Part shown: positions 5,880 to 37,002 of the stretch, in pieces | How positions within the stretch are numbered: the stretch's first letter is position 1 | Layout: each line of letters opens with the position of its first letter | DNA from: a virus | Taxonomy: Duplodnaviria; Heunggongvirae; Uroviricota; Caudoviricetes | Length of the DNA: 43,859 nucleotides | Direction: 5' to 3' (one strand) | IMG/VR virus record: IMGVR_UViG_2908567220_000006 | Span: 1-43,859 of that record | The notes under the pieces: model-generated | The model's database searches: none | Seen by the model: the letters and a program-made list of their open reading frames with translations, nothing else | What the model was told of the DNA's origin: nothing | Program-made: the position numbers and the translations under genes

Positions 5880-6695
5880 ATGAGCAGACATGCAACAGAT
5901 TGGGCCTGGGAGACAGATCCAGGTAGCTCATCATTAAAGCTCATACTGCTCTCGATGGCTGACAGAGCCGATGAATATAACCTCTGCTACCCCAGCATAG
6001 AACGCCTCGTTAAAGACACTTGCCTGAATAAAAAAACCGTGCAGGCCGGGCTTATATCGCTCATGAAAATGGGGCTTATTTCAGATACCGGAGATAGAAA
6101 GGGAGCGACAAAAAGAGTGCGGGTTTTCTCTCTTAATATAACCAAAAACGGGAACATTAAAGGCAACCGGGAAGGGGGTAATGAACCCGAAAACGGTAAT
6201 GTTACCGAAAACGGGAATATACCCAAAAACGGGATGTTGAATGATCCCAAAAACGGGATGTTGAATGATCCCAAAAACGGGATCCAGAACCAGTCATATA
6301 ACCAGTCATTTAACCAAGAGAGGGAGAGCAGGACAAAAAGCGGGGATTCTGTGCCTCATGACCCCGGCGCAAACAACGCCGTGATGAATAACTTTGTTCC
6401 TCCTGGTTGGCCAGGGCAATTAGGCAAATTTGTCATGCATGAACAATGGCAACCATCAGATGACTTTCTTCGGAAAAGCTCATTGCAGGGGATCTACCTG
6501 GACAGTCTGCCAACGGCACAGGAACTTGCAGAGTTCAGAATTTACTGGATGGCTGAGGGTAAGGCATACCATCAGGCACAGTGGGAGCAGAAGCTGGCAA
6601 GGAGGCTGCAGATTAGCAGACAGAAGCAATCAACATTACCTGATAACAACGTTCCGCACTGGAACAGCCCTGAAGCATGGGAGGATTTCTTGTGA
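5880..6695 (+). CDS. replication initiator (O-like; N-terminal winged-HTH, C-terminal DnaT-like domain)
   Basis: 271 aa; Asn/Gly-rich repetitive linker encoded by iteron-like DNA repeats; directly upstream of the P-like helicase loader. Confidence 0.7.
   Translation: MSRHATDWAWETDPGSSSLKLILLSMADRADEYNLCYPSIERLVKDTCLNKKTVQAGLISLMKMGLISDTGDRKGATKRVRVFSLNITKNGNIKGNREGGNEPENGNVTENGNIPKNGMLNDPKNGMLNDPKNGIQNQSYNQSFNQERESRTKSGDSVPHDPGANNAVMNNFVPPGWPGQLGKFVMHEQWQPSDDFLRKSSLQGIYLDSLPTAQELAEFRIYWMAEGKAYHQAQWEQKLARRLQISRQKQSTLPDNNVPHWNSPEAWEDFL
6140..6285. repeat. iteron array (putative replication origin) inside initiator gene
   Basis: Six copies of CC(C/G)AAAACGGGAA-like units spaced 18-24 bp, including a perfect tandem 24-bp duplication cccaaaaacgggatgttgaatgat at 6222-6269. 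Confidence 0.55.
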
Positions 6696-9480: not shown

Positions 9481-9657
9481 ATGCGTGCGGCATGTATCGG
9501 CTTGTTACCGTACCCGACTCGTTTTTGGGCTTCTGCGCTAATTGCAAAGCCACATGTCCTGATGGCTGACAACATCATCCCGGCACCAAAGCGCCGCCAT
9601 ACCGGTATTGCAGCGGCACGACGAGCAGCAAAGAGACGCAGGAGAGCAAAGCGATGA
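9481..9657 (+). CDS. small basic hypothetical protein (58 aa)
   Basis: Own translation MRAACIGLLPYPTRFW...RRAAKRRRRAKR; ATG overlaps stops on both sides. Confidence 0.3.
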   Translation: MRAACIGLLPYPTRFWASALIAKPHVLMADNIIPAPKRRHTGIAAARRAAKRRRRAKR

Positions 9658-9830
9658 AAAACCGTAAGGCAAAACGACTTTTTTTACAGCGACCTGTGCG
9701 TGTGGTGGAGCTGGTTATTAGCAACCATAAGATAGCGGTACTCCATCCATTTGGTCAGGTGGCTTTTGCCGCAAAGCGTAAGCCTACTGCGTCACAGAAC
9801 AGGCGGAAGAAAGGGTACGCAGTAAGATGA
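9654..9830 (+). CDS. small basic hypothetical protein (58 aa), paralog of next gene
   Basis: Own translation MKNRKAKRLFLQRPVRV...; shares the MKNRKAK N-terminus and start context with the gene at 9827. Confidence 0.35.
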   Translation: MKNRKAKRLFLQRPVRVVELVISNHKIAVLHPFGQVAFAAKRKPTASQNRRKKGYAVR

Positions 9831-10015
9831 AAAACCGTAAAGCAAAGATTCTGTTAGTTCGTAGAAACGCTCCTGGCGTCTGGCAGTGGGTGAGACTCAG
9901 CAACCGACGGATGGGGTTGATGAAATATTACGGGATGATGGATTGTGGTTTTTGCAAAAAGTCCAGCGCGGCGCAAAACCGCTGGAGAAACCATTTGCGC
10001 ACTAAAGGAGAGTGA
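9827..10015 (+). CDS. small basic hypothetical protein (62 aa)
   Basis: ORF-track protein MKNRKAKILLVRRNAPG...; ATGA overlap with the upstream paralog. Confidence 0.4.
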   Translation: MKNRKAKILLVRRNAPGVWQWVRLSNRRMGLMKYYGMMDCGFCKKSSAAQNRWRNHLRTKGE

Positions 10016-10226: not shown

Positions 10227-11191
10227 CCACTATTACCAGAGAAAACGCGGAAATTAAATCATTCATCACTGGTTTCCTGAGCGACCCGGCGCACGATAAC
10301 CAATCTACAGACAGCCTGCTTGCCAATGTGTTTCGTATCGCACAGGCATCGCTGGAAGCAGAGCCTATTGGTGAAGTTTCAGAGAAGCGATATGGCCTTG
10401 TTATGGATGGAACGGTAGACCTTGGCGGGAAATCAACTTATCGCATCATTAAGGGAGAAAAAGCGATGAAGTTGTTGCCGTTGGGGACGAAGTTTTATAC
10501 CGCACCGCCAGCGCCGGTAATACAGGCTGATATCGCGCAAGCAATTGAAAACCTAAAGCAAAAGTTAGTGGAATGCAATCGCTATAACTACTGCGCAGAT
10601 GCAGTTAAAGGTGTTGAGGATGCCAGCCGCGTCTTGGCACTCCAATATCAAAATATGTCAACGCCGATAACGCCGGAGGCCATTGAAAACGCAATTGAAT
10701 ACATCCGCAGTATCGCTTTTCACATCGATGAAGACGATTACCACGGCAAGCATATTGCGTATTTCATGCGACAAGCACTGGCCTGGCTGGAAGGGCATTC
10801 ATGCAGCGACGACAGACTGGGTAAAGCCGAGAATCAAACAGTACACGGCAACCAGGCTGCCGAATCCAATCGCGGTAATGAGTGGACCGGCAATCCTGAT
10901 ATTGATAACGCAATCATCATGCTCGACCGCATAGATACGCTGGAAAGTTGCGATGATGACCGTATTGAGGCTGTTAAGGCTGTTTTGCGTAGACTGGCTG
11001 GCAACTCTCCGGTAACTCCGGATGGTTGGGTTATGGTGCCGAAGGAGTTAACCCCGGAAATGATGAGAGCCGTTCAGATTAGAAGTGAGCTTGGAGGGTA
11101 TGCCACTTCCAATCTATCTGGTGCATACAATATGTTTTCTGAGTTCTGGAATGTTGCTGTCTCAGCTGCGCCTAAGGTTGATGATTTATGA
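10223..11191 (+). CDS. hypothetical phage protein (322 aa)
   Basis: Long ORF in operon; no motif assigned. Confidence 0.55.
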   Translation: MTTITRENAEIKSFITGFLSDPAHDNQSTDSLLANVFRIAQASLEAEPIGEVSEKRYGLVMDGTVDLGGKSTYRIIKGEKAMKLLPLGTKFYTAPPAPVIQADIAQAIENLKQKLVECNRYNYCADAVKGVEDASRVLALQYQNMSTPITPEAIENAIEYIRSIAFHIDEDDYHGKHIAYFMRQALAWLEGHSCSDDRLGKAENQTVHGNQAAESNRGNEWTGNPDIDNAIIMLDRIDTLESCDDDRIEAVKAVLRRLAGNSPVTPDGWVMVPKELTPEMMRAVQIRSELGGYATSNLSGAYNMFSEFWNVAVSAAPKVDDL

Positions 11192-11490: not shown

Positions 11491-11764
11491 CCTTCAACTT
11501 GCCGTCAAAGGTGAATACTTCGATGCCATGATTCGAGGAGAGAAAACGGAAGAGTATCGCCTGTGTAATAACTATTGGAATAAGCGAATTATGTTCCGGG
11601 AGTATGACCGCCTGATTATCACAAAGGGATATCCGAAGCGTGACGATTCCAGCCGCAGAATTGACGTTCCGTATGGCGGCTATGAAATCAAGACAATCAC
11701 ACATCCGCACTTCGGCGATAAACCGGTAAAGGTGTACGCGATAAAGGTGAATATTGATGGCTAA
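11483..11764 (+). CDS. ASCH/PUA-like domain protein
   Basis: LAVKGEYFDAMIRGEKTEEYR pattern resembles ASCH-fold proteins. Confidence 0.45.
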   Translation: MANLQLAVKGEYFDAMIRGEKTEEYRLCNNYWNKRIMFREYDRLIITKGYPKRDDSSRRIDVPYGGYEIKTITHPHFGDKPVKVYAIKVNIDG

Positions 11765-12095
11765 ATCAGCAGCAGAGCGCAAAGCCGCTCAGAGAGCCAG
11801 ACAAGCTGCATCTGGTGTGCGTAAGCTGGAAATTGTGCTTGATGCTCAGGAAATTGAAATGCTGGAGCGTAACTGTGCCACGCGTCGCCCCGGGCGTGCG
11901 CCTTACGAATTTGGTGAGTATATAGCGTTACTGATCCGCCAGGATGATGCACGCGTGCGCGGGCGTATAAAATCGATCAGCAGAAAATGTTGCGGTAAGT
12001 GCGGCGAGAGAGTTCCAGTTAATTCATGCCCGTGTAATGGTGACTCGCAATGCTGGGTGACTAAAGGCTGGCATGAAACGAAATTAATAGTGTGA
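11754..12095 (+). CDS. Cys-rich hypothetical protein; candidate late-gene regulator
   Basis: C-terminal CCGKCG...CPCNGDSQC cluster; last gene before a terminator and the terminase operon. Regulator role is inference from position only. Confidence 0.45.
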   Translation: MMAKSAAERKAAQRARQAASGVRKLEIVLDAQEIEMLERNCATRRPGRAPYEFGEYIALLIRQDDARVRGRIKSISRKCCGKCGERVPVNSCPCNGDSQCWVTKGWHETKLIV

Positions 12096-12144
12096 CATGT
12101 CACGAGTAGATTATGCATGATGAATTTGATGGGTTTTGAATACT

Positions 12145-12170
12145 GCCGCCAACTATGGCGGCTTTATTTT
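12145..12170 (+). terminator. intrinsic terminator upstream of terminase operon
   Basis: GCCGCC-AACTAT-GGCGGC hairpin followed by TTTATTTT. Confidence 0.5.
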
Positions 12171-12181
12171 GCATGGTACTA

Positions 12182-12214
12182 TTACCACAACGGTAACTAT
12201 TACCACGGTGGTTA
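12182..12214. promoter_or_regulatory. palindrome pair immediately upstream of small terminase start
   Basis: 12182-12196 perfect TTACCacaacGGTAA; 12200-12214 TTACCacggtGGTTA overlapping the SD. Confidence 0.5.
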
Positions 12215-12216
12215 TG

Positions 12217-12810
12217 ATGCCTGCTGAACCTAAAACCTATAAACGCAAATCAACGCAATTTAAGCCACTAACAGCAATGCAGGAGGCTTATTGCCAGTCA
12301 TACATCAAAACGCCTGAAAACCAGACTCAGGCAGCGATTAACGCAGGATTCTCCCCAAATACAGCGGCAGTTAAAGCCAGTGTCATGATGCGCGATGAAC
12401 GCATTCAAAAACGGATTGCCGAGTTGATGGAGGAGCGCAACAAACGAATGCGCGTCAGTGCTGATTACGTTCTCATGCGCCTGGTGGAGATCGACCAGAT
12501 GGACGTGATCGACATCCTCAACGACGATGGGAGCCTTAAACCAATCCGTGAGTGGCCGAAAATCTGGCGCACTACGCTTAGTGGCTTTGATCTGTCATCG
12601 ACCATCATGAACATGAACGAGGATTCGATAGAGACAATCCTCAAAAAAATTAAATGGCCTGACAAGGTGAAGAACCTTGAGCTGATTGGTAAGCATGTTG
12701 ATGTCAACGCGTTCAAAGAACGTCTGGATGTTAATGTGAATGTGACAATTGCTGATCGCATAGCAGCAGCCAGGAAGCGACTCAAAGAACGTCAGGATGG
12801 TAATCAGTGA
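12217..12810 (+). CDS. terminase small subunit
   Basis: Start at MMPAEP with GGTGG SD; about 197 aa, directly upstream of and overlapping the large terminase. The ORF-track start at 12136 would read through the operator copies. Confidence 0.7.
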   Translation: MPAEPKTYKRKSTQFKPLTAMQEAYCQSYIKTPENQTQAAINAGFSPNTAAVKASVMMRDERIQKRIAELMEERNKRMRVSADYVLMRLVEIDQMDVIDILNDDGSLKPIREWPKIWRTTLSGFDLSSTIMNMNEDSIETILKKIKWPDKVKNLELIGKHVDVNAFKERLDVNVNVTIADRIAAARKRLKERQDGNQ

Positions 12811-14282
12811 CAGATACAGCGTTATCTCCTGAAGAGCAGTTGATCGAGGATATTGCAGGGTTCACTCACGATCCGCTTGGCTATGCCCTCTATGCGTTCC
12901 CGTGGGGGGAAGAGGGGACTGAACTGGCACATGCCACCGGCCCACGTCAGTGGCAGGCTGATGCGTTCCGAGAGATACGTGATCACCTGCAGAATCCAGA
13001 GACGCGCTATCAGCCGCTTATGCTGGCACGCGCTTCTGGTCACGGTATTGGTAAATCCGCATTCATCTCAATGCTGATCAACTGGGGCATGTCCACTTGC
13101 GAGGATTGTAAGGTCGTGGTGACCGCCAACACCGACAACCAGCTACGAACGAAGACCTGGCCGGAAATTATCAAGTGGTCGAACCTTGCTATCACGAAAG
13201 ACTGGTTTACCTGTACCGCTACCGCGATGTACAGCAATGATCCTGGACACGACAAGCGGTGGCGAGCTGACGCAATACCCTGGTCTGAGCACAACACTGA
13301 GGCATTCGCCGGACTACACAACGAGCGCAAACGCATCATCGTGGTATTCGATGAAGCGTCGAACATTGCGGATCTGGTGTGGGAAGTTGCCGAGGGTGCG
13401 CTAACGGACGAAGACACTGAGATTATCTGGGTGGCGTTCGGAAACCCGACGCGTAATACCGGACGTTTCCGCGAATGTTTCCGCAAATATAAACACCGCT
13501 GGAAAACTGCGCAGATTGACAGCCGGACGGTGGAAGGCACCAACAAACAGCAGTTGCAGAAATGGGTTGATGACTACGGGGAAGACAGCGACTTCGTAAA
13601 AATCCGTGTGCGCGGCATATTCCCTGATGCATCTGAATTGCAGTTTATCCCTACCGGTCTTACTGACGAGGCAATGAAACGGGTGGTAACTGCTGCGCAG
13701 GTGGCACATGCTCCGGTGATAATCGGCGTTGACCCTGCATACTCCGGTGTTGATGACGCGGTGATATACCTGCGGCAGGGGCTGCACAGTAAGGTGCTGT
13801 GGACCGGCAACAAGACCACTGACGATCTGATTATGGCAAAGCGTATCGCTGACTTTGAAGACCAGTATCAGGCTGACGCGGTGTTCATCGACTTCGGTTA
13901 CGGTACCGGGCTGAAGTCAATCGGTGACGGTTGGGGGCGCACATGGCAACTTGTTCCGTTCGGTGGTGCGTCCACTGACCCGCAGATGCTTAACAAGCGT
14001 GGGGAGATGTTCAATGCATGCAAGACATGGCTGAGGCTGGGCGGCATGCTGGATGACCAGGAAACAGCGGACGAACTGTCGGCGGCAGAGTACAAAGTTC
14101 GCGTGGACGGTAAAATCGTTATCGAACCGAAGGAAGATATCAAGGAGCGGCTTGGGCGTTCGCCGGGTAAAGGCGATGCGCTACTGCTGACGTTTGCTTT
14201 CCCGGTGTCGAAGCGTCTGCGAATTCCCGGTCAGCAGAACCAGCAAGGCAAGGCCATTACAGATTACGATCCCTATGCTTAA
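12807..14282 (+). CDS. terminase large subunit
   Basis: 491 aa; Walker-A-like ARASGHGIGKS; GTG start overlapping upstream stop. Confidence 0.85.
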   Translation: MTDTALSPEEQLIEDIAGFTHDPLGYALYAFPWGEEGTELAHATGPRQWQADAFREIRDHLQNPETRYQPLMLARASGHGIGKSAFISMLINWGMSTCEDCKVVVTANTDNQLRTKTWPEIIKWSNLAITKDWFTCTATAMYSNDPGHDKRWRADAIPWSEHNTEAFAGLHNERKRIIVVFDEASNIADLVWEVAEGALTDEDTEIIWVAFGNPTRNTGRFRECFRKYKHRWKTAQIDSRTVEGTNKQQLQKWVDDYGEDSDFVKIRVRGIFPDASELQFIPTGLTDEAMKRVVTAAQVAHAPVIIGVDPAYSGVDDAVIYLRQGLHSKVLWTGNKTTDDLIMAKRIADFEDQYQADAVFIDFGYGTGLKSIGDGWGRTWQLVPFGGASTDPQMLNKRGEMFNACKTWLRLGGMLDDQETADELSAAEYKVRVDGKIVIEPKEDIKERLGRSPGKGDALLLTFAFPVSKRLRIPGQQNQQGKAITDYDPYA

Positions 14283-14333
14283 TCCTCTGGAGGGGATAAT
14301 GCTGCTGATATCCTCTGGTGAGGATAAAACAAA

Positions 14334-14359
14334 GCCAGCTCATCGGCTGGCTGTTTGTG
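14334..14359. terminator. bidirectional hairpin between terminase operon and convergent moron
   Basis: GCCAGC-TCATCG-GCTGGC stem flanked by T-rich tracts on both strands. Confidence 0.45.
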
Positions 14360-14372
14360 ACATGTCACGGTG

Positions 14373-14729
14373 TTATTGCTCGCTTAACTTCTGCTTCAGC
14401 AAGTAACCTTCGAGCATCCAGATTTTGTTTACAGCATTCTGCCGGGCAATCTTCCGACCAATTTCTGCATCAAAATTTTCCGGACTTGCACAGGCACTCT
14501 CTCCGGTGACGGTGAAGCCATTCTTCAGTACCAATACGCAGAAAGTCAGGAGGTCTGTAGATTTATGCGCTGTCCATGAATCGCCAACGCCCATATTGGC
14601 AGCACGAATGCCGTCATAAGCAGTAAAGAAATGCTCTTCAAGAATGATGCTTTCGATATATTGAGGCGTAACTCGCGGAGCGGTTTTGCCTTTCTCAACG
14701 ATTTCTTTTTCGATTTGCTGGTCGTTCAT
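14373..14729 (-). CDS. hypothetical protein, reverse-oriented moron in the late region
   Basis: 118 aa; AAGGTGAG SD; opposite strand to all flanking structural genes; a weak resemblance to small phage Gp49/Sf6 gp66-like proteins is recalled but unverified. Confidence 0.5.
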   Translation of the reverse strand: MNDQQIEKEIVEKGKTAPRVTPQYIESIILEEHFFTAYDGIRAANMGVGDSWTAHKSTDLLTFCVLVLKNGFTVTGESACASPENFDAEIGRKIARQNAVNKIWMLEGYLLKQKLSEQ

Positions 14730-14927: not shown

Positions 14928-15004
14928 TGGCGTGGCATGCAGGATTCGAACCTGCGACCAACCGCTTAGAAGGCGGTTGCTCTGTCCAGCTGAGCTAATG
15001 CCAC
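14928..15004 (-). tRNA. tRNA-Arg (anticodon UCU)
   Basis: Manual fold of the reverse complement: 7-bp acceptor stem GTGGCAT/ATGCCAC, D-arm GCTCAGCTGGACAGAGC, anticodon stem ACCGC/GCGGT with loop CTTCTAA, T-arm GCAGGTTCGAATCCTGC, discriminator G plus CCA. Acceptor stem differs from my recollection of host argU. Confidence 0.9.
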
Positions 15005-15326: not shown

Positions 15327-15341
15327 TTACCTGAAAGGTAA
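15327..15341. promoter_or_regulatory. palindrome copy upstream of portal/head operon
   Basis: Perfect TTACCtgaaaGGTAA about 90 bp upstream of the first ORF of the head operon. Confidence 0.5.
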
Positions 15342-15431
15342 TAATTTGTGCGTTAAATGTCAACTGTCTACGATAAATAAATCATATGTGGTTAAATTGG
15401 TAATAATTTAATTGCGTACGGAGTCATTGAT

Positions 15432-19375: not shown

Positions 19376-19813
19376 ATGATCACCGACAAACTGTTGATGT
19401 TCTCCGAAGCTCAGGCGGTTACGAATACCGCGGCTTCTACTGACGTAATCGATCTCGGTCCAATTGACGGAAACCGTCGCGATATCGGTGTGGGTTACCC
19501 GCTTGAGTTTTGGGCGCTGGTTAACGAAGCCGCCACGGCAAGTGGTGAGGCAACTGTAAACATCCAGTTGCAGACGAGTGAGAATAACAGCTCATGGTCC
19601 ACTATTTATGATAGTGGCGCACTGGCAAAGGCCACCCTGACAGCAGGTAAGCGAGTTGTTTCTGCAAAGGTGCCAGCCGGTGTTCAGCGATATCTGCGTG
19701 TTAACTACTCCGTCGCAACTGGCCCACTAACGGCTGGCAAATTCACTGCGGGTATCAATCTTGATGTTGATGCCAATACGCCGTATCCGATCCGCTCAAA
19801 AGTAACTGGTTAA
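19376..19813 (+). CDS. hypothetical virion protein (possible capsid decoration)
   Basis: 145 aa, strong SD, beta-rich composition. Confidence 0.45.
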   Translation: MITDKLLMFSEAQAVTNTAASTDVIDLGPIDGNRRDIGVGYPLEFWALVNEAATASGEATVNIQLQTSENNSSWSTIYDSGALAKATLTAGKRVVSAKVPAGVQRYLRVNYSVATGPLTAGKFTAGINLDVDANTPYPIRSKVTG

Positions 19814-30785: not shown

Positions 30786-31637
30786 ATGAAAAAAATAAAT
30801 TTGTTTTTTGGCATAGTGCTTTCAATAGTCTCTGTAAATCCTACAGCTGCCAGTTCATTGCAATGCAATAAGGATAACTTTGATGCATGCAAAACGTGCG
30901 AACAATTATCAAAGGCTATCGACTTAAAAGAACCTAATCGTGGCGATTACTATAGAGGGGCTTTATGGAATGGGCTTTACGCCTCTTATGTAATTAATTG
31001 CCCTGTGGTTGCAGAGAAGTTACTGAGCCATGGTGCTATACCATCATATGGCGGATATATGGGGTCTATGGGGGCGGTTCTGACAGGAAAATGGCCTCAT
31101 AACAATGAATCAATAAATCTTTCATGGGCAGATTTGCTTATAAAACATGGATTTGATGTTAATAGGCATACGGGGAATTATAAATCAGCTACTGAAGTAT
31201 GGGCTATAGATAAAAAACAGATTGAATATAAGTCAGTTTTTGACAAGTTAATTCAATCCAGCGAAGTAAAACCACTCGATCCTTCAAGAAATTTAGAATG
31301 GTGTGCGTCTGAAGGGTATCGCTCAGTTGTCGTTTATTCCCTTAACTCATGTATAGAAAATGCTATAAAACGTTTGGATGACGGTGTTTCTTCAGCGTCT
31401 GATATTTCATCAGCAGCCGTAAATTCCTGTACTAGCGATGTAGAAAATTTCAATAAGCATTTGGCATGCAAAGCAGCTGTTAAAGAAAACTCTGATAAAG
31501 AGAGAAGCAACGTTTACCAGTTATTAACCAGTGATAGTCAAATGAATAAAAATGTTATTGATATGCTGAAGGAAAGAAATATTGAAACGGTTCTTGAATT
31601 TAGAGCTGAAAATCGATCAGCGAAAACTGCACAGTGA
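30786..31637 (+). CDS. secreted Cys-rich protein with ankyrin-repeat-like segments (moron)
   Basis: N-terminal signal peptide MKKINLFFGIVLSIVSVNPTAA; AT-rich codon usage unlike flanking genes; segments ALWNGLYASYVINCPVVAEKLLSHGA and WADLLIKHGFDVN resemble ankyrin repeats. Confidence 0.55.
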   Translation: MKKINLFFGIVLSIVSVNPTAASSLQCNKDNFDACKTCEQLSKAIDLKEPNRGDYYRGALWNGLYASYVINCPVVAEKLLSHGAIPSYGGYMGSMGAVLTGKWPHNNESINLSWADLLIKHGFDVNRHTGNYKSATEVWAIDKKQIEYKSVFDKLIQSSEVKPLDPSRNLEWCASEGYRSVVVYSLNSCIENAIKRLDDGVSSASDISSAAVNSCTSDVENFNKHLACKAAVKENSDKERSNVYQLLTSDSQMNKNVIDMLKERNIETVLEFRAENRSAKTAQ

Positions 31638-31643
31638 TCAAAC

Positions 31644-31668
31644 AGGCCGCTTTCGCGGCCTTGTTTTT
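31644..31668. terminator. intrinsic terminator shared by convergent genes
   Basis: GGCCGC-TTTC-GCGGCC hairpin followed by TTGTTTTT on the plus strand. Confidence 0.6.
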
Positions 31669-34207: not shown

Positions 34208-34222
34208 TCACCTGAAAGGTAA
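34208..34222. promoter_or_regulatory. near-perfect palindrome copy (TCACC-N5-GGTAA) in divergent region before tailspike
   Basis: One mismatch; lies between the LexA box and the tailspike promoter region. Confidence 0.4.
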
Positions 34223-34326
34223 TATCTATTCGTATTTACAGCCTTTCTATCCATATATGGTTTTTCAGGTAATAGAATAACCAGATATGCGGCGCAACGG
34301 GTGCTGCGACTATCTGGAGATTTAAC

Positions 34327-37002
34327 ATGACGGTCTCAACCGAAGTTGACCACAACGAATACACTGGCAATGGTGTTACGACGACATTCCCTTACAAATT
34401 TAGGATCTTCAAAAAATCAGATCTGGTAGTACAGGTTGTTGACATTAACGAGAATATAAACGTACTGGTTCTTGATACAGATTACATCGTCACCGGAGCA
34501 GGAGGGTACAGCGGCGGTAATGTAATTCTCTCGAAGGCGTTGGCTAACGGTCATCAGATATCTATATCACGAGAACTACCAGCTACTCAGGAAACGGATT
34601 TACGTAATCAGGGTAAGTTCTTCGCTGAGGTACATGAGGATGCGTTCGACAAGTTGACCATGCTTATCCAGCAGTGCTTCAGCTTTCTACGCCTGTCCCT
34701 GCGCAAGCCCTCTTTCATCGCGAACTATTACGATGCGCTCAACAACCGCATTCGTAACCTGCGTGACCCGTCACAGGCGCAGGACGCAGCCACGAAGAAT
34801 TATGTTGATGGGCAGATCGTTGACAATACCAATGCCTGGAAAGCTGGTGATGACATTCTTGATCAGAAAATTGATAGCAATTTCCGAAGAACAATTCGGG
34901 TTCCTGAAAGTGATGTTGATATGGTTCCTACTATAGCTGCAAGAAAAAACTCGCTATTTGGGTGGAACAGCTCCAGTCAACCTGTCCCGATATTTTCTAT
35001 GACGGAAACTGCTGACCTGGCTATTAAGCTAGCAAGCACTGAGATGGGATTGGGTGGCAACCTTGTTGGTATTTACGATGGACGACCGCCAGTTGTTGTT
35101 ACCAATACAGTAACAGATAAAATCAAGGATGGTGCAGCCGGCCTGCGTAAGGATTTCGGAGCTGTAGGTGACGGATACCACGACGATACCGCCGCTTTTA
35201 ATGACTGGTGGGAATGCCTCATGGACCTTCTCTATAAGCGCCGGGGTGTTGAGAGCGACGAAACTGCAGTGCCGTTTATGCTTCAGAAAGGGCCCAGACT
35301 TCATATCGAAAACGGCACATTTATTTATAACGGTCCCGGACTAAATATCACTGATACTGACGCATTTGTTTTTATCGCCGATGGTGAGAGTTCGCTCGCT
35401 ACAAAAATTTTGCTTCCGGATGGTGTTTACTTATTCGATTTTGATAAAAACCCGGTTCATGCGCACCTTGCCAATCTGACCATTCATGGTGGGCTTGGTG
35501 CAGTGCGTTATAAATCTAAACAGCGTTCAACTAACAGCATTCATCTTTTTGAAAATCTACGACTGTCTCGATATAAAGAATGCGGTATTAGTAATAATGC
35601 TATCGATATGCCGTATTTTCGTGTCAGTGGCTCAATGTTTTACGGGGACCCGACAAAACAAACCGTTGGTGTTTGCGTTTCAGGATATGCCGCCGGTGGT
35701 TTTATTCGTGATTCCGTTTTCAGTGATAACCGATACGGCATTAAGTTGGCTGTAGGGAAAAACAGCGTCGAGAGCAACGGCCCTGCAACTCCATACCTTA
35801 TTCAGTGCAATGATTTTTACCGTACTGGTAATCGCGGAGGCTCTGCATCATACGACATCTGGATTGAGCCGGGGGTAACCAGCAATAATGCCGGTCGCGG
35901 TATAAAACTGAGTCAAAACAAGTTCGGACAGGAGAACTTAAAATCTCCGGATACGCATATTTTGATTGCTGATGCCGCTGTATCCGGTAGTGGCTTAGGG
36001 CTAAATGGCGACAGGGCTCACGTTGAAACGCAGTCGGCAGGTTTTGTTTCTGGGGTGAGGTTTGACGGCAATGATGTTAACTCAAACAGCGCCGGGTATA
36101 TTGCGCCGTTTATCCGGACATTTACACCTAACGTGGGGAATTTCAGGTTTTCTGATTTGTACGACAACGATATGCCATCACGCATCATTGAGTTTGCAGG
36201 TGGTATTACTCAGTCACAAATAGGGAACCTGGGGCGTACAAATGTGTTTGACGCGTCTATGTGCCTGGCATTGCAGAAAGGTGTTGAACCTAAGCTGCTA
36301 TCCAACATGAATGACGTCTTCCGCCTGATTGATCCTCTGAATTATTACGTGGGGCACCCGCAGTCAACACTGGTTCCTGTTGGGGGCCAGCAGGATGATT
36401 TTGAATTACTTTACTCCGGTCCTACGTCTACTATCGGACTTAGTAACGCCAGCCGGTCATCGCTCAATAATTCATATGGGGGAATATTTGAAGCAGCTGA
36501 AATCACAATGAATACAGACGAAGGTCGCGCAGTTGCGTCTATAAGTGGTGGGCTGGCGGGGCGTAAACACTGGATTGATTTTGATATTCGTCGAGGCTCT
36601 TCAAATCCCGTAGGCTCTGTTGTGATGGAGGTCATGGACCCTACAGGGGTAACCATTCTGTTTCGTAGAATAATCCTGGTTGATACCATTACTCGATGGC
36701 AAAAAGTCGTTCTCCCGTACATTCCTAATGTAAACGGAGATATTATCGTCCGGTTCCGCTCAAATGTTTATGTGGCTGGATCAGCTACGAATTTTGTTAT
36801 TGGCAACCTCAATGTTTACCGAAACGAAACGCCAGTGAATACGGGGCATAATAGCGGTCTGCGTATGCAGTGGGATCTGCAACACGCAGTGAAAGGCGCA
36901 CGACATGAATGGTATGATAATGCAGGTAATCTGAGAGCTAAAAATGGTGCGCCGACGTCTGCCACCGATGGCGTAATTATCAGTGCAAACCCGGTAGTGT
37001 GA
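34327..37002 (+). CDS. tailspike protein (N-terminal particle-binding domain plus beta-helix-like enzymatic domain)
   Basis: 891 aa; N-terminus MTVSTEVDHNEYTGNGVTTTFPYKFRIF typical of podovirus tailspike/fibre adaptor domains; long Gly/Asn/Ser-rich beta-rich body. Confidence 0.75.
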   Translation: MTVSTEVDHNEYTGNGVTTTFPYKFRIFKKSDLVVQVVDINENINVLVLDTDYIVTGAGGYSGGNVILSKALANGHQISISRELPATQETDLRNQGKFFAEVHEDAFDKLTMLIQQCFSFLRLSLRKPSFIANYYDALNNRIRNLRDPSQAQDAATKNYVDGQIVDNTNAWKAGDDILDQKIDSNFRRTIRVPESDVDMVPTIAARKNSLFGWNSSSQPVPIFSMTETADLAIKLASTEMGLGGNLVGIYDGRPPVVVTNTVTDKIKDGAAGLRKDFGAVGDGYHDDTAAFNDWWECLMDLLYKRRGVESDETAVPFMLQKGPRLHIENGTFIYNGPGLNITDTDAFVFIADGESSLATKILLPDGVYLFDFDKNPVHAHLANLTIHGGLGAVRYKSKQRSTNSIHLFENLRLSRYKECGISNNAIDMPYFRVSGSMFYGDPTKQTVGVCVSGYAAGGFIRDSVFSDNRYGIKLAVGKNSVESNGPATPYLIQCNDFYRTGNRGGSASYDIWIEPGVTSNNAGRGIKLSQNKFGQENLKSPDTHILIADAAVSGSGLGLNGDRAHVETQSAGFVSGVRFDGNDVNSNSAGYIAPFIRTFTPNVGNFRFSDLYDNDMPSRIIEFAGGITQSQIGNLGRTNVFDASMCLALQKGVEPKLLSNMNDVFRLIDPLNYYVGHPQSTLVPVGGQQDDFELLYSGPTSTIGLSNASRSSLNNSYGGIFEAAEITMNTDEGRAVASISGGLAGRKHWIDFDIRRGSSNPVGSVVMEVMDPTGVTILFRRIILVDTITRWQKVVLPYIPNVNGDIIVRFRSNVYVAGSATNFVIGNLNVYRNETPVNTGHNSGLRMQWDLQHAVKGARHEWYDNAGNLRAKNGAPTSATDGVIISANPVV

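Follow-up and report, generated by a model that had tools for sequence, protein, structure and literature searches.

A 12-bp palindrome as candidate operator of a predicted ribbon-helix-helix/zinc-finger protein in epsilon15-like and other phages of enteric bacteria

Small repressors with a ribbon-helix-helix (RHH) fold, the dimers of which insert a two-stranded ribbon into the major groove of the operator, are represented by Arc and Mnt of P22, CopG, omega of pSM19035, ParG and the RHH antitoxins. SlmA, a protein of the TetR family, has the 12-bp palindrome GTGAGTACTCAC as its site consensus, and the CRP site is TGTGA-N6-TCACA with a length of 22 bp. In the TraR/DksA family a long helix leads into a CxxC-N17-CxxC zinc finger. 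MatP was reportedly described by Dupaigne and coworkers in 2012 as consisting of an N-terminal four-helix bundle, an RHH domain and a C-terminal coiled coil. The matS site is the 13-bp sequence GTGAC[AG]N[TC]GTCAC (PMC3603311, PMC8669397), which prophages have been reported to avoid (PMC3603311). Phages and plasmids commonly encode TraR homologues among their small early proteins (PMC9239242); a DxxDxA tip motif is needed for the action of TraR on RNA polymerase (10.64898/2026.07.27.740977), and TraR does not bind DNA (PMC6970531). Here, a repeated palindromic element and the cysteine-rich (Cys-rich) protein gene next to it were analysed in a viral DNA sequence of 43,859 nucleotides (IMG/VR record IMGVR_UViG_2908567220_000006, positions 1 to 43,859; the whole sequence is referred to as the window) and compared with these systems.

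The explanation that is considered probable, while leaving real room for others, is that the RHH/zinc-finger protein encoded next to the palindrome uses it as its operator, and that site and protein form a pair common to many phages of enteric bacteria. Gene and site were found in approximately 12% of the complete E. coli genomes (637 of 5426). The site is unannotated in the epsilon15, phiV10 and N15 records, the 12-mer string does not occur in the searchable literature, and nothing useful was found in the literature on 'matS-like' elements in prophages or on TTHA0139.

The palindrome in the window and in related phages

The window represents an epsilon15/phiV10-like temperate podovirus of E. 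coli (genus Uetakevirus). Its segment 11000-16000 is 95-98% identical to the O157 typing phages, phiV10 and TL-2011b and approximately 81% identical to epsilon15. Two identical 14-mers on either side of the terminase genes, which had been pointed out in a preliminary description of the sequence, are present exactly at both coordinates. Copy 1 (TGTGACATGTCACG, 12091-12104) spans the TGA stop (12093-12095) of a Cys-rich open reading frame (ORF) of 112 aa; this gene (11757-12095, plus strand) encodes a basic protein and is the last gene of the early-right operon. Copy 2 (TGTGACATGTCACG, 14356-14369) is located 3 nt past the hairpin behind terL (14333-14352) and 3 nt ahead of the stop of a minus-strand gene. 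Both placements, over the stop codon and just past the hairpin, agree with what had been described. The core of the 14-mer, GTGACATGTCAC, is a perfect 12-bp palindrome.

A direct repeat of 14 nt is by itself not unusual, because approximately seven other chance 14-mer pairs exist in the window. Perfect 12-bp palindromes occur 11 times, as expected; the only identical pair among them is formed by copies 1 and 2, and some duplicated 12-bp palindrome was present in 9 of 400 random sequences generated with a first-order Markov model. The pattern GTGAC-N2-GTCAC matches the window three times with 0.03 matches expected, and three matches were reached in none of 100 shuffles. The third match (GTGACCCGTCAC, 34763-34774) lies inside an ORF of 891 aa (34327-37002); it is not conserved in relatives with the homologous gene segment, was rejected as a functional site and is, on this comparison, probably fortuitous. 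Within the window the case against chance is moderate; the decisive support is comparative, in that epsilon15 and many other phages keep the element.

Matches to GTGAC-Nk-GTCAC were counted in IMG/VR loci comprising 10 kb on each side of homologues of the Cys-rich protein, 3.1 Mb in total. The N2 motif was found 295 times, with approximately one match expected per clade, and the enrichment of 60-125 fold is specific for this spacer. The 79 epsilon15-like loci contained 127 N2 motifs and 0-2 matches for the other spacers (1.2 expected), the 49 N15-like loci 105 N2 motifs and no match for any other spacer, the 57 loci of P2-like Yersinia phages 58 N2 motifs together with one N3 and three N6 matches, and the two loci of the Vibrio K308-like type five N2 motifs and a single N1 match. 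The general form of the motif is YGTGAC-N2-GTCACR, with the flanks Y and R. Across these four homologue clades (epsilon15-like, N15-like, P2-like from Yersinia, and Vibrio) the linked protein is 32-41% identical, and in nearly all loci of three clades one site is positioned between -3 and +20 nt from the stop of the gene. The site stays at the gene end even where the stop codon has moved upstream and is therefore not kept by coding.

Individual phages illustrate this arrangement. In N15 the homologue gp46 (35% identity to the window protein) carries CGTGACTGGTCACG over its stop, with identical copies within repA and after gene 33; in the P2-like Yersinia phage vB_YenM_56.17 the homologue gp14 (41% identity) carries TTGTGACGCGTCACAA over its stop. 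Vibrio VPHZ6 (33% identity) has CGTGACAGGTCACG 2 nt past the stop, and Vibrio K308 (32% identity) has three sites, one of them 237 nt past the gene and one 19 nt ahead of the terS ATG. The central dinucleotide, like the flanks, is uniform within each genome and differs by clade, the centre being AT in epsilon15-like, TG/CA in N15-like, GC in P2-like and AC/GC/CC in Vibrio phages. Since N15 and phiV10 share the host E. coli and differ in this centre, a phage-encoded rather than a host reader is favoured.

Among close relatives the element is largely maintained. The exact 14-mer is present at both homologous places in epsilon15, with flanks that diverge in sequence and a spacer to the terminator that diverges in length. 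Of 77 close relatives, 76 carry the exact copy 1, located -3 or +14 nt relative to the end of the gene, and for copy 2 approximately 69 close relatives comprise 51 with the exact sequence, 6 with point mutations and 11 in which it is replaced by other inserts. A third copy in epsilon15, at 19517, has a final A for G, overlaps the gp18 stop and is located 2 nt ahead of the terminator of the virion operon. At the corresponding end of the virion-gene block of the window (terminator hairpin GGCCGCTTTCGCGGCC, 31644-31661, plus strand) the hairpin is kept and the palindrome, which stands directly 5' of GGCCGCTTTCGCGGCC in many relatives, has been lost, 'gtgatcaaac' being found instead. The joint with a variable upstream gene (30786-31637) falls exactly at the place of this loss (31637-31661).

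Within the repA gene of N15-like phages, all 28 distinct contexts have the same 14-mer amid neighbouring codons that vary at their third positions. In these phages (N15 itself, locus L128, at 33237, and loci L210-L258) the repA palindrome is accompanied by a conserved half-site, ACGTCACGAAT, approximately 33 nt downstream, and in P2-like phages the main site is followed after approximately 25 nt by a half-site or by a second, degenerate site. Such extra half-sites may reflect cooperative binding.

The element was also observed outside these phages. Isolated exact 14-mers were found in AT-rich intergenic DNA of Providencia chromosomes (L375, L382, L393 (Providencia burhodogranariea), L355 and L366), none of them within 8 kb of a homologue of the phage protein and at a number far above chance for one genome; the 14-mer may be a host site in Morganellaceae. 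Scanning of 185,579 species for the 14-mer gave no usable frequency, because chance matches (approximately 4400 expected) dominate. In unrelated bacteria and viral contigs GTGACATGTCAC or GTGACA/TGTCACG half-sites are repeated in tandem at intervals of approximately 18-22 bp, namely in L371, L327, L423 (Sorangium), L390 ('Jettenia'), L349 (Bulleidia) and the IMG/VR loci L023, L071 and L109. In L349, arrays that mix N2 and N3 spacers flank an ORF of 364 aa. These tandem arrays look like iterons or centromeres.

The Cys-rich protein and the sites at transcription-unit ends

The Cys-rich protein belongs to the family of epsilon15 gp49, phiV10 p55 and N15 gp46 (phrog_536), which is labelled 'transcriptional regulator' in PHROGs and 'hypothetical' by PGAP. 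Homologues are present in 153 phage records (Escherichia, Salmonella, Klebsiella, Yersinia, Vibrio, Aeromonas and others), and the family is small, with 212 clusters at 50% identity among 1.84 billion representatives. Sequence searches with the protein against Pfam, NCBIfam and PDB gave no match. AlphaFold2 modelling with a deeper alignment resulted in a predicted local distance difference test (pLDDT) value of 80 overall and of 88-97 for residues 21-70; this model replaced a first one from a shallow alignment, for which the pLDDT was 61.5 and Foldseek gave no match. The layout of the model comprises a basic helix (5-19), an extended segment (20-29), two helices (30-42 and 52-75) and a less confident Cys-rich tail, and its strand-helix-helix (beta-alpha-alpha) core is structurally similar to solved RHH proteins. 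In the comparison of the family profile with the PDB, TraR and YbiI were found at E-values of 0.005-0.009. The alignment to F-plasmid TraR with hhalign had a probability of 81% and an E-value of 1.2e-5 over TraR residues 6-65, with the fourth cysteine unaligned; individual family members gave no match to the Pfam family zf-dskA_traR. Due to the predicted RHH core and the remote similarity to TraR, the description that fits the protein best is an RHH core joined to a TraR/DksA-like Cys4 zinc finger. The RHH DNA-binding core is a prediction of the structural model, and remote homology of the Cys4 finger to TraR is probable from the profile alignments.

In the epsilon15-like clade the sites are associated with terminators. 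A terminator-like hairpin is located within 75 nt of the site in 35 of 42 distinct epsilon15-like site contexts, compared with 11 of 400 random positions. The three sites of epsilon15 correspond to the end of the early operon, the junction of terL with a reverse gene and the end of the virion operon. Sites in N15-like, P2-like and K308-like phages are often found just ahead of the ribosome-binding site (RBS) of the next gene or near LexA-box promoters.

In many phages a promoter that contains a consensus LexA box (CTGT-N8-ACAG) comes after the regulator gene and its palindrome. This synteny was observed in loci L006, L007, L024, L035, L116 and L122, in L126 (2960-2980) and in L125 (3055-3080), and recurs in N15-like and P2-like phages. 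The LexA-box promoter presumably drives an SOS-controlled antirepressor.

From these data the following mode of action can be proposed. Judged by synteny and co-variation, the adjacent Cys-rich protein is most likely the binder of the palindrome. It would be composed of an N-terminal basic helix, the RHH core and a C-terminal Cys4 finger distantly like that of TraR/DksA, and would occupy the site either as one dimer on the dyad or as two dimers on the inverted heptads NGTGACA/TGTCACN, which recall the heptad sites of omega. Two to three sites sharing centre and flanks are present per phage genome. In epsilon15-like phages they are located at the ends of transcription units, namely the end of the early operon before terS, the junction of terL with a reverse moron and, in relatives, the end of the virion operon. 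As the sites at these unit ends lie by intrinsic terminators, the bound protein probably governs RNA polymerase at the boundaries, where the putative effect would be insulation, a roadblock or the control of read-through. Owing to its conservation, the site is also the seam for module exchange.

Several observations weigh against an operator of this kind. The link between protein and site is based on synteny and co-variation only, and RHH regulators usually bind their own promoter and not their own stop codon. The adjacency to terminators fails in the other clades (N15-like 0 of 51, P2-like 1 of 39, K308-like 0 of 5 sites), so that a terminator-linked mechanism cannot be general; a universal rule placing the site beside a terminator was rejected, as it holds only in the epsilon15-like clade. 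Copy 2 is point-mutated or replaced in about a quarter of the close relatives and the window has lost the third site, and accessory sites are therefore dispensable. The Aeromonas phage 14AhydR10PP shows only a site with one mismatch, upstream of the gene. Finally, the acidic DxxDxA tip motif of TraR is absent from the window protein.

In a more far-reaching version of the proposal, which is regarded as doubtful, protein and site would be an orthogonal phage counterpart of MatP and matS, an RHH protein on GTGAC palindromes one base shorter that organises, bridges or insulates phage DNA and perhaps loops out the packaging genes or sets this DNA apart from the MatP/MukBEF machinery of the host. 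Alternatively, within the same small share of probability, the protein would tether a TraR-like module to DNA and in this way reprogramme RNA polymerase at the ends of transcription units.

Despite its wide spread the protein carries no annotation beyond 'hypothetical' or an inferred 'transcriptional regulator'. The protein-site pair provides a handle on the separation of early and late transcription in Uetakeviruses, in which no late-gene regulator was noticed here. As the element marks points of module exchange, it is useful for the analysis of phage mosaicism and for engineering.

Alternative explanations

Instead of a DNA site, the palindrome could act as RNA, namely as a short 3'-end hairpin that is read by the arginine-rich N-terminus of the protein, or that by itself tunes termination, the stability of the mRNA or, at the embedded stop, the coupling of translation. 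The sites are indeed situated in transcribed 3' regions, many of them 2-20 nt before the next Shine-Dalgarno sequence or ATG (N15 gene 47, the small ORF of locus L140, K308 terS), those of epsilon15-like phages abut terminator hairpins, and the N-terminal segment AERKAAQRARQ resembles, in our own reading, arginine-rich RNA-binding motifs. However, the hairpin predicted for the window copies is weak (-2.7 to -3.2 kcal/mol) and its folding energy is no better than that of shuffles, so that a stable RNA hairpin was rejected. Moreover, the would-be stem is invariant without compensatory changes and the centre of the would-be loop varies, a pattern contrary to the one commonly seen in RNA hairpins; copy 2 stands where two genes converge and, on the late strand, lies 3' of the hairpin, and the fold predicted for the protein is of the DNA-binding RHH type. 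A role as RNA is accordingly rated as unlikely.

It is less likely still that the element belongs to the host, as a variant of matS read by MatP or as a site of another conserved host protein that ties phage or prophage DNA into chromosome organisation. Its half-sites and T...G flanks are those of consensus matS (TGTGACATTGTCACG), the protein family occurs in phages of Escherichia, Salmonella, Klebsiella, Yersinia, Vibrio and Aeromonas, and the taxa that bear MatP coincide roughly with this host range; several isolated 14-mers without a nearby regulator gene in Providencia chromosomes count in the same direction. The spacer, however, separates the two kinds of site, with one N3 match and 295 N2 matches in the 3.1 Mb. 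The preliminary description had named an element common throughout enterobacterial genomes, for example a known host site, with no enrichment at phage module junctions as the finding that would refute its reading; what was found are matS half-sites with the wrong spacer and, in the window, no matS even at one mismatch. Prophages are reported to avoid matS (PMC3603311). The clade-specific centre, which differs even among phages sharing the host E. coli, and the tight linkage of the site to one phage gene also argue against a host factor.

The preliminary description had left the choice between a regulator-binding site and the scar of a module exchange. In the latter case the element would be a passive recombination linker without a reader protein, a short sequence that is repeatedly used by illegitimate or short-homology recombination. 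In its favour, the flank at the gene end is joined to five different downstream families exactly at the site, the flank at the terL hairpin to seven different sequence families and the flank at another hairpin to eight families in 11 sites, that is, a single conserved flank is combined with many unrelated partners. The cargo beside copy 2 and beside the third site varies, and recombination genes of the RecT and exonuclease types are encoded according to the epsilon15 annotation. Mosaic joints that land exactly on the element identify it as a module boundary, and this part of the earlier proposal stands. Yet a scar would neither remain invariant with a constant 2-bp spacer in podo-, sipho- and myovirus lineages, the linked protein of which is only approximately 32-41% identical, nor persist in an essential coding region (repA) amid varying synonymous sites, nor retain a perfect dyad. 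Spacing-specific enrichment, invariance across clades and the persistence in repA favour a protein-recognition site, and a purely passive scar is given little credence. Recombination joints fall on the sites because these are the only sequence kept between interchangeable modules. The phiV10 record begins within copy 1; a genome end or a cos/pac site was considered for this reason and rejected, as the start of the record there is explained by the depositors having opened it after the stop of the last gene.

Highly improbable is an arrangement in the style of lambda PR'/tR', in which copy 1 would supply the -35 element (GTGACA) of a late promoter with a leader reaching to the terminator at 12145-12170, and the Cys-rich protein would be a Q-like antiterminator loaded there. 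A sigma70-like GTGACA-18-CATGAT is present at 12092-12121, followed by the terminator and then the late genes, epsilon15 has GTGACA-17-TAAATT as a counterpart, the Cys-rich gene is the last early gene, like Q in lambda, and no other candidate late regulator was noticed in family scans of nine nearby ORFs and in the record annotations consulted. The -35 reading was rejected since the -10 match is not conserved and, in the window, spans the deletion joint of a small ORF; in relatives of the L140 type the RBS of this small ORF is located 2-3 nt past the palindrome. In addition, four promoter-like matches were found in the region with 4.1 expected from shuffles, copy 2 and the sites of other clades lack a promoter-like arrangement, and terminators without a site occur in relatives as well as in the window. 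N15 carries the Q-like gp40 besides gp46, and P2-like phages have an Ogr-sized regulator too.

A functionless chance repeat has next to no probability and is regarded as already refuted by the comparative sequence data, since the other chance 14-mer pairs and the duplicated 12-bp palindromes in approximately 2% of random sequences are outweighed by exact conservation in epsilon15 and hundreds of loci and by the 60-125 fold spacer-specific enrichment.

Neighbouring features and comparison with known systems

Between copy 1 and the terminase genes a spacer of 40 nt (12105-12144, plus strand) is found, a small-ORF relic that ends with '...gatgaatttgatgggttttga', approximately the last 25 nt of the ORF. 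This small ORF (approximately 70 codons) is intact in many relatives, for example in L140 at 10357-10569, between the regulator gene and the terminator. The intrinsic terminator (12145-12170, plus strand; GCCGCCAACTATGGCGGC followed by TTTATTTT) closes the early-right operon ahead of terS, and a terminator is annotated at the homologous place in the epsilon15 record. The genes terS and terL (12136-14282, plus strand), which are bracketed by the two copies, were assigned on the basis of Pfam Terminase_2 and the annotation of phiV10, epsilon15 and an E. coli prophage; terL itself extends from 12807 to 14282 (plus strand), with its stop at 14282. With the annotated terS start, TTG at 12136 (phiV10, PGAP), the gene would traverse the terminator; ATG at 12214 or 12217 is a more plausible start and agrees with that of epsilon15. 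The GC-rich hairpin at 14333-14352 is placed between the convergent terL and minus-strand genes and has its T-run, TTGTTTTATC, on the minus strand. The minus-strand gene (14373-14729) belongs to the Gp49/Sf6-gp66 family (N4-gp49/Sf6-gp66); beside it, in the variable region between terL and the portal block, a tRNA-Arg with the anticodon TCT is encoded on the minus strand (14928-15004).

Further repeats were observed in the window. Operator-like dyads of the form TTACC-N5-GGTAA are located at 12182-12196 ahead of terS, at 15329-15343 ahead of the portal block and at 34210-34224 ahead of the tailspike gene, the 15-mer ACCTGAAAGGTAATA being repeated at 15329 and 34210. They match sites labelled 'repressor' in the epsilon15 record, an indication that every late block is a direct target of the prophage repressor. 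Tandem 24-bp repeats (CCCAAAAACGGGATGTTGAATGAT; 6222-6283, two full copies and the start of a third) lie within the ORF 5880-6695, annotated as DnaT-like single-stranded DNA-binding or replication protein in the matching E. coli prophage, and look like origin iterons. The sequence GATGAAAAACCGTAA is repeated at 9653-9667 and 9826-9840, at the starts of the consecutive small ORFs 9654-9830 and 9827-10015, which are probably tandem paralogues.

Of the known sites, matS is the most similar in sequence. The half-sites are the same, and the T...G flanks agree with the E. coli consensus oligonucleotide TGTGACATTGTCACG; with a spacer of 2 bp instead of 3 (12 instead of 13 bp) the phage element falls outside the matS definition, and the N3 pattern is absent from the window even when one mismatch is allowed. 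The phage sites are located on phage DNA beside the gene of their own putative reader, unlike matS. At the protein level, no Pfam MatP match was obtained, and hhalign against E. coli MatP, the sequence of which was verified against PDB entry 4d8j, gave a probability of 0.1-0.5%; the protein was rejected as a MatP homologue at the sequence level. The predicted architecture differs from the tripartite MatP fold as well, with a single short basic N-terminal helix in place of the bundle and a Cys4 finger in place of the coiled coil; only the RHH fold class is common to both. The one-base offset raises the question of whether phages deliberately employ a near-copy of a site for the organisation of the host chromosome, one that is illegible to the host protein.

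The SlmA site and the phage element are both 12-bp palindromes with outer GTGA...TCAC and a 2-bp centre, and differ at positions 5 and 8, which are C/G here and G/C in the SlmA consensus. A CRP or FNR site was rejected because of the wrong spacing: TGTGA and TCACA are separated by N4 here and by N6 in the CRP site, as the preliminary description had rightly remarked.

The arrangement around copy 1 resembles that of lambda Q and tR' in that the last early gene is followed by a terminator and then by late packaging genes, and in that a small zinc-finger protein is combined with an adjacent DNA site. In contrast to lambda Q, there is no Q-family Pfam match and no conserved promoter or pause element at the site, and N15 has a Q-like gene as well.

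In its similarity to TraR/DksA proteins (F TraR, lambda Orf73, VP882 TraR) the family profile aligns with TraR over almost its entire length, through the long helix and the CxxCG..(L/I)P finger. Unlike TraR, the phage protein has an N-terminal extension of 45 residues at the position of the tip, and only three of the four TraR cysteines align.

With the RHH repressors the phage protein shares its small size and the predicted beta-alpha-alpha core, short symmetric or heptad-type sites and extra half-sites near some copies. It differs from them by the candidate operator at the 3' end of its gene, the added zinc finger and the further sites at distant transcription-unit ends, and no RHH family of Pfam was matched at the sequence level. 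The pair can thus be placed with a known kind of system, an RHH-type regulator and its candidate palindromic operator, in which the combination of domains and the placement of the sites are unusual and the near-identity to a host site is suggestive.

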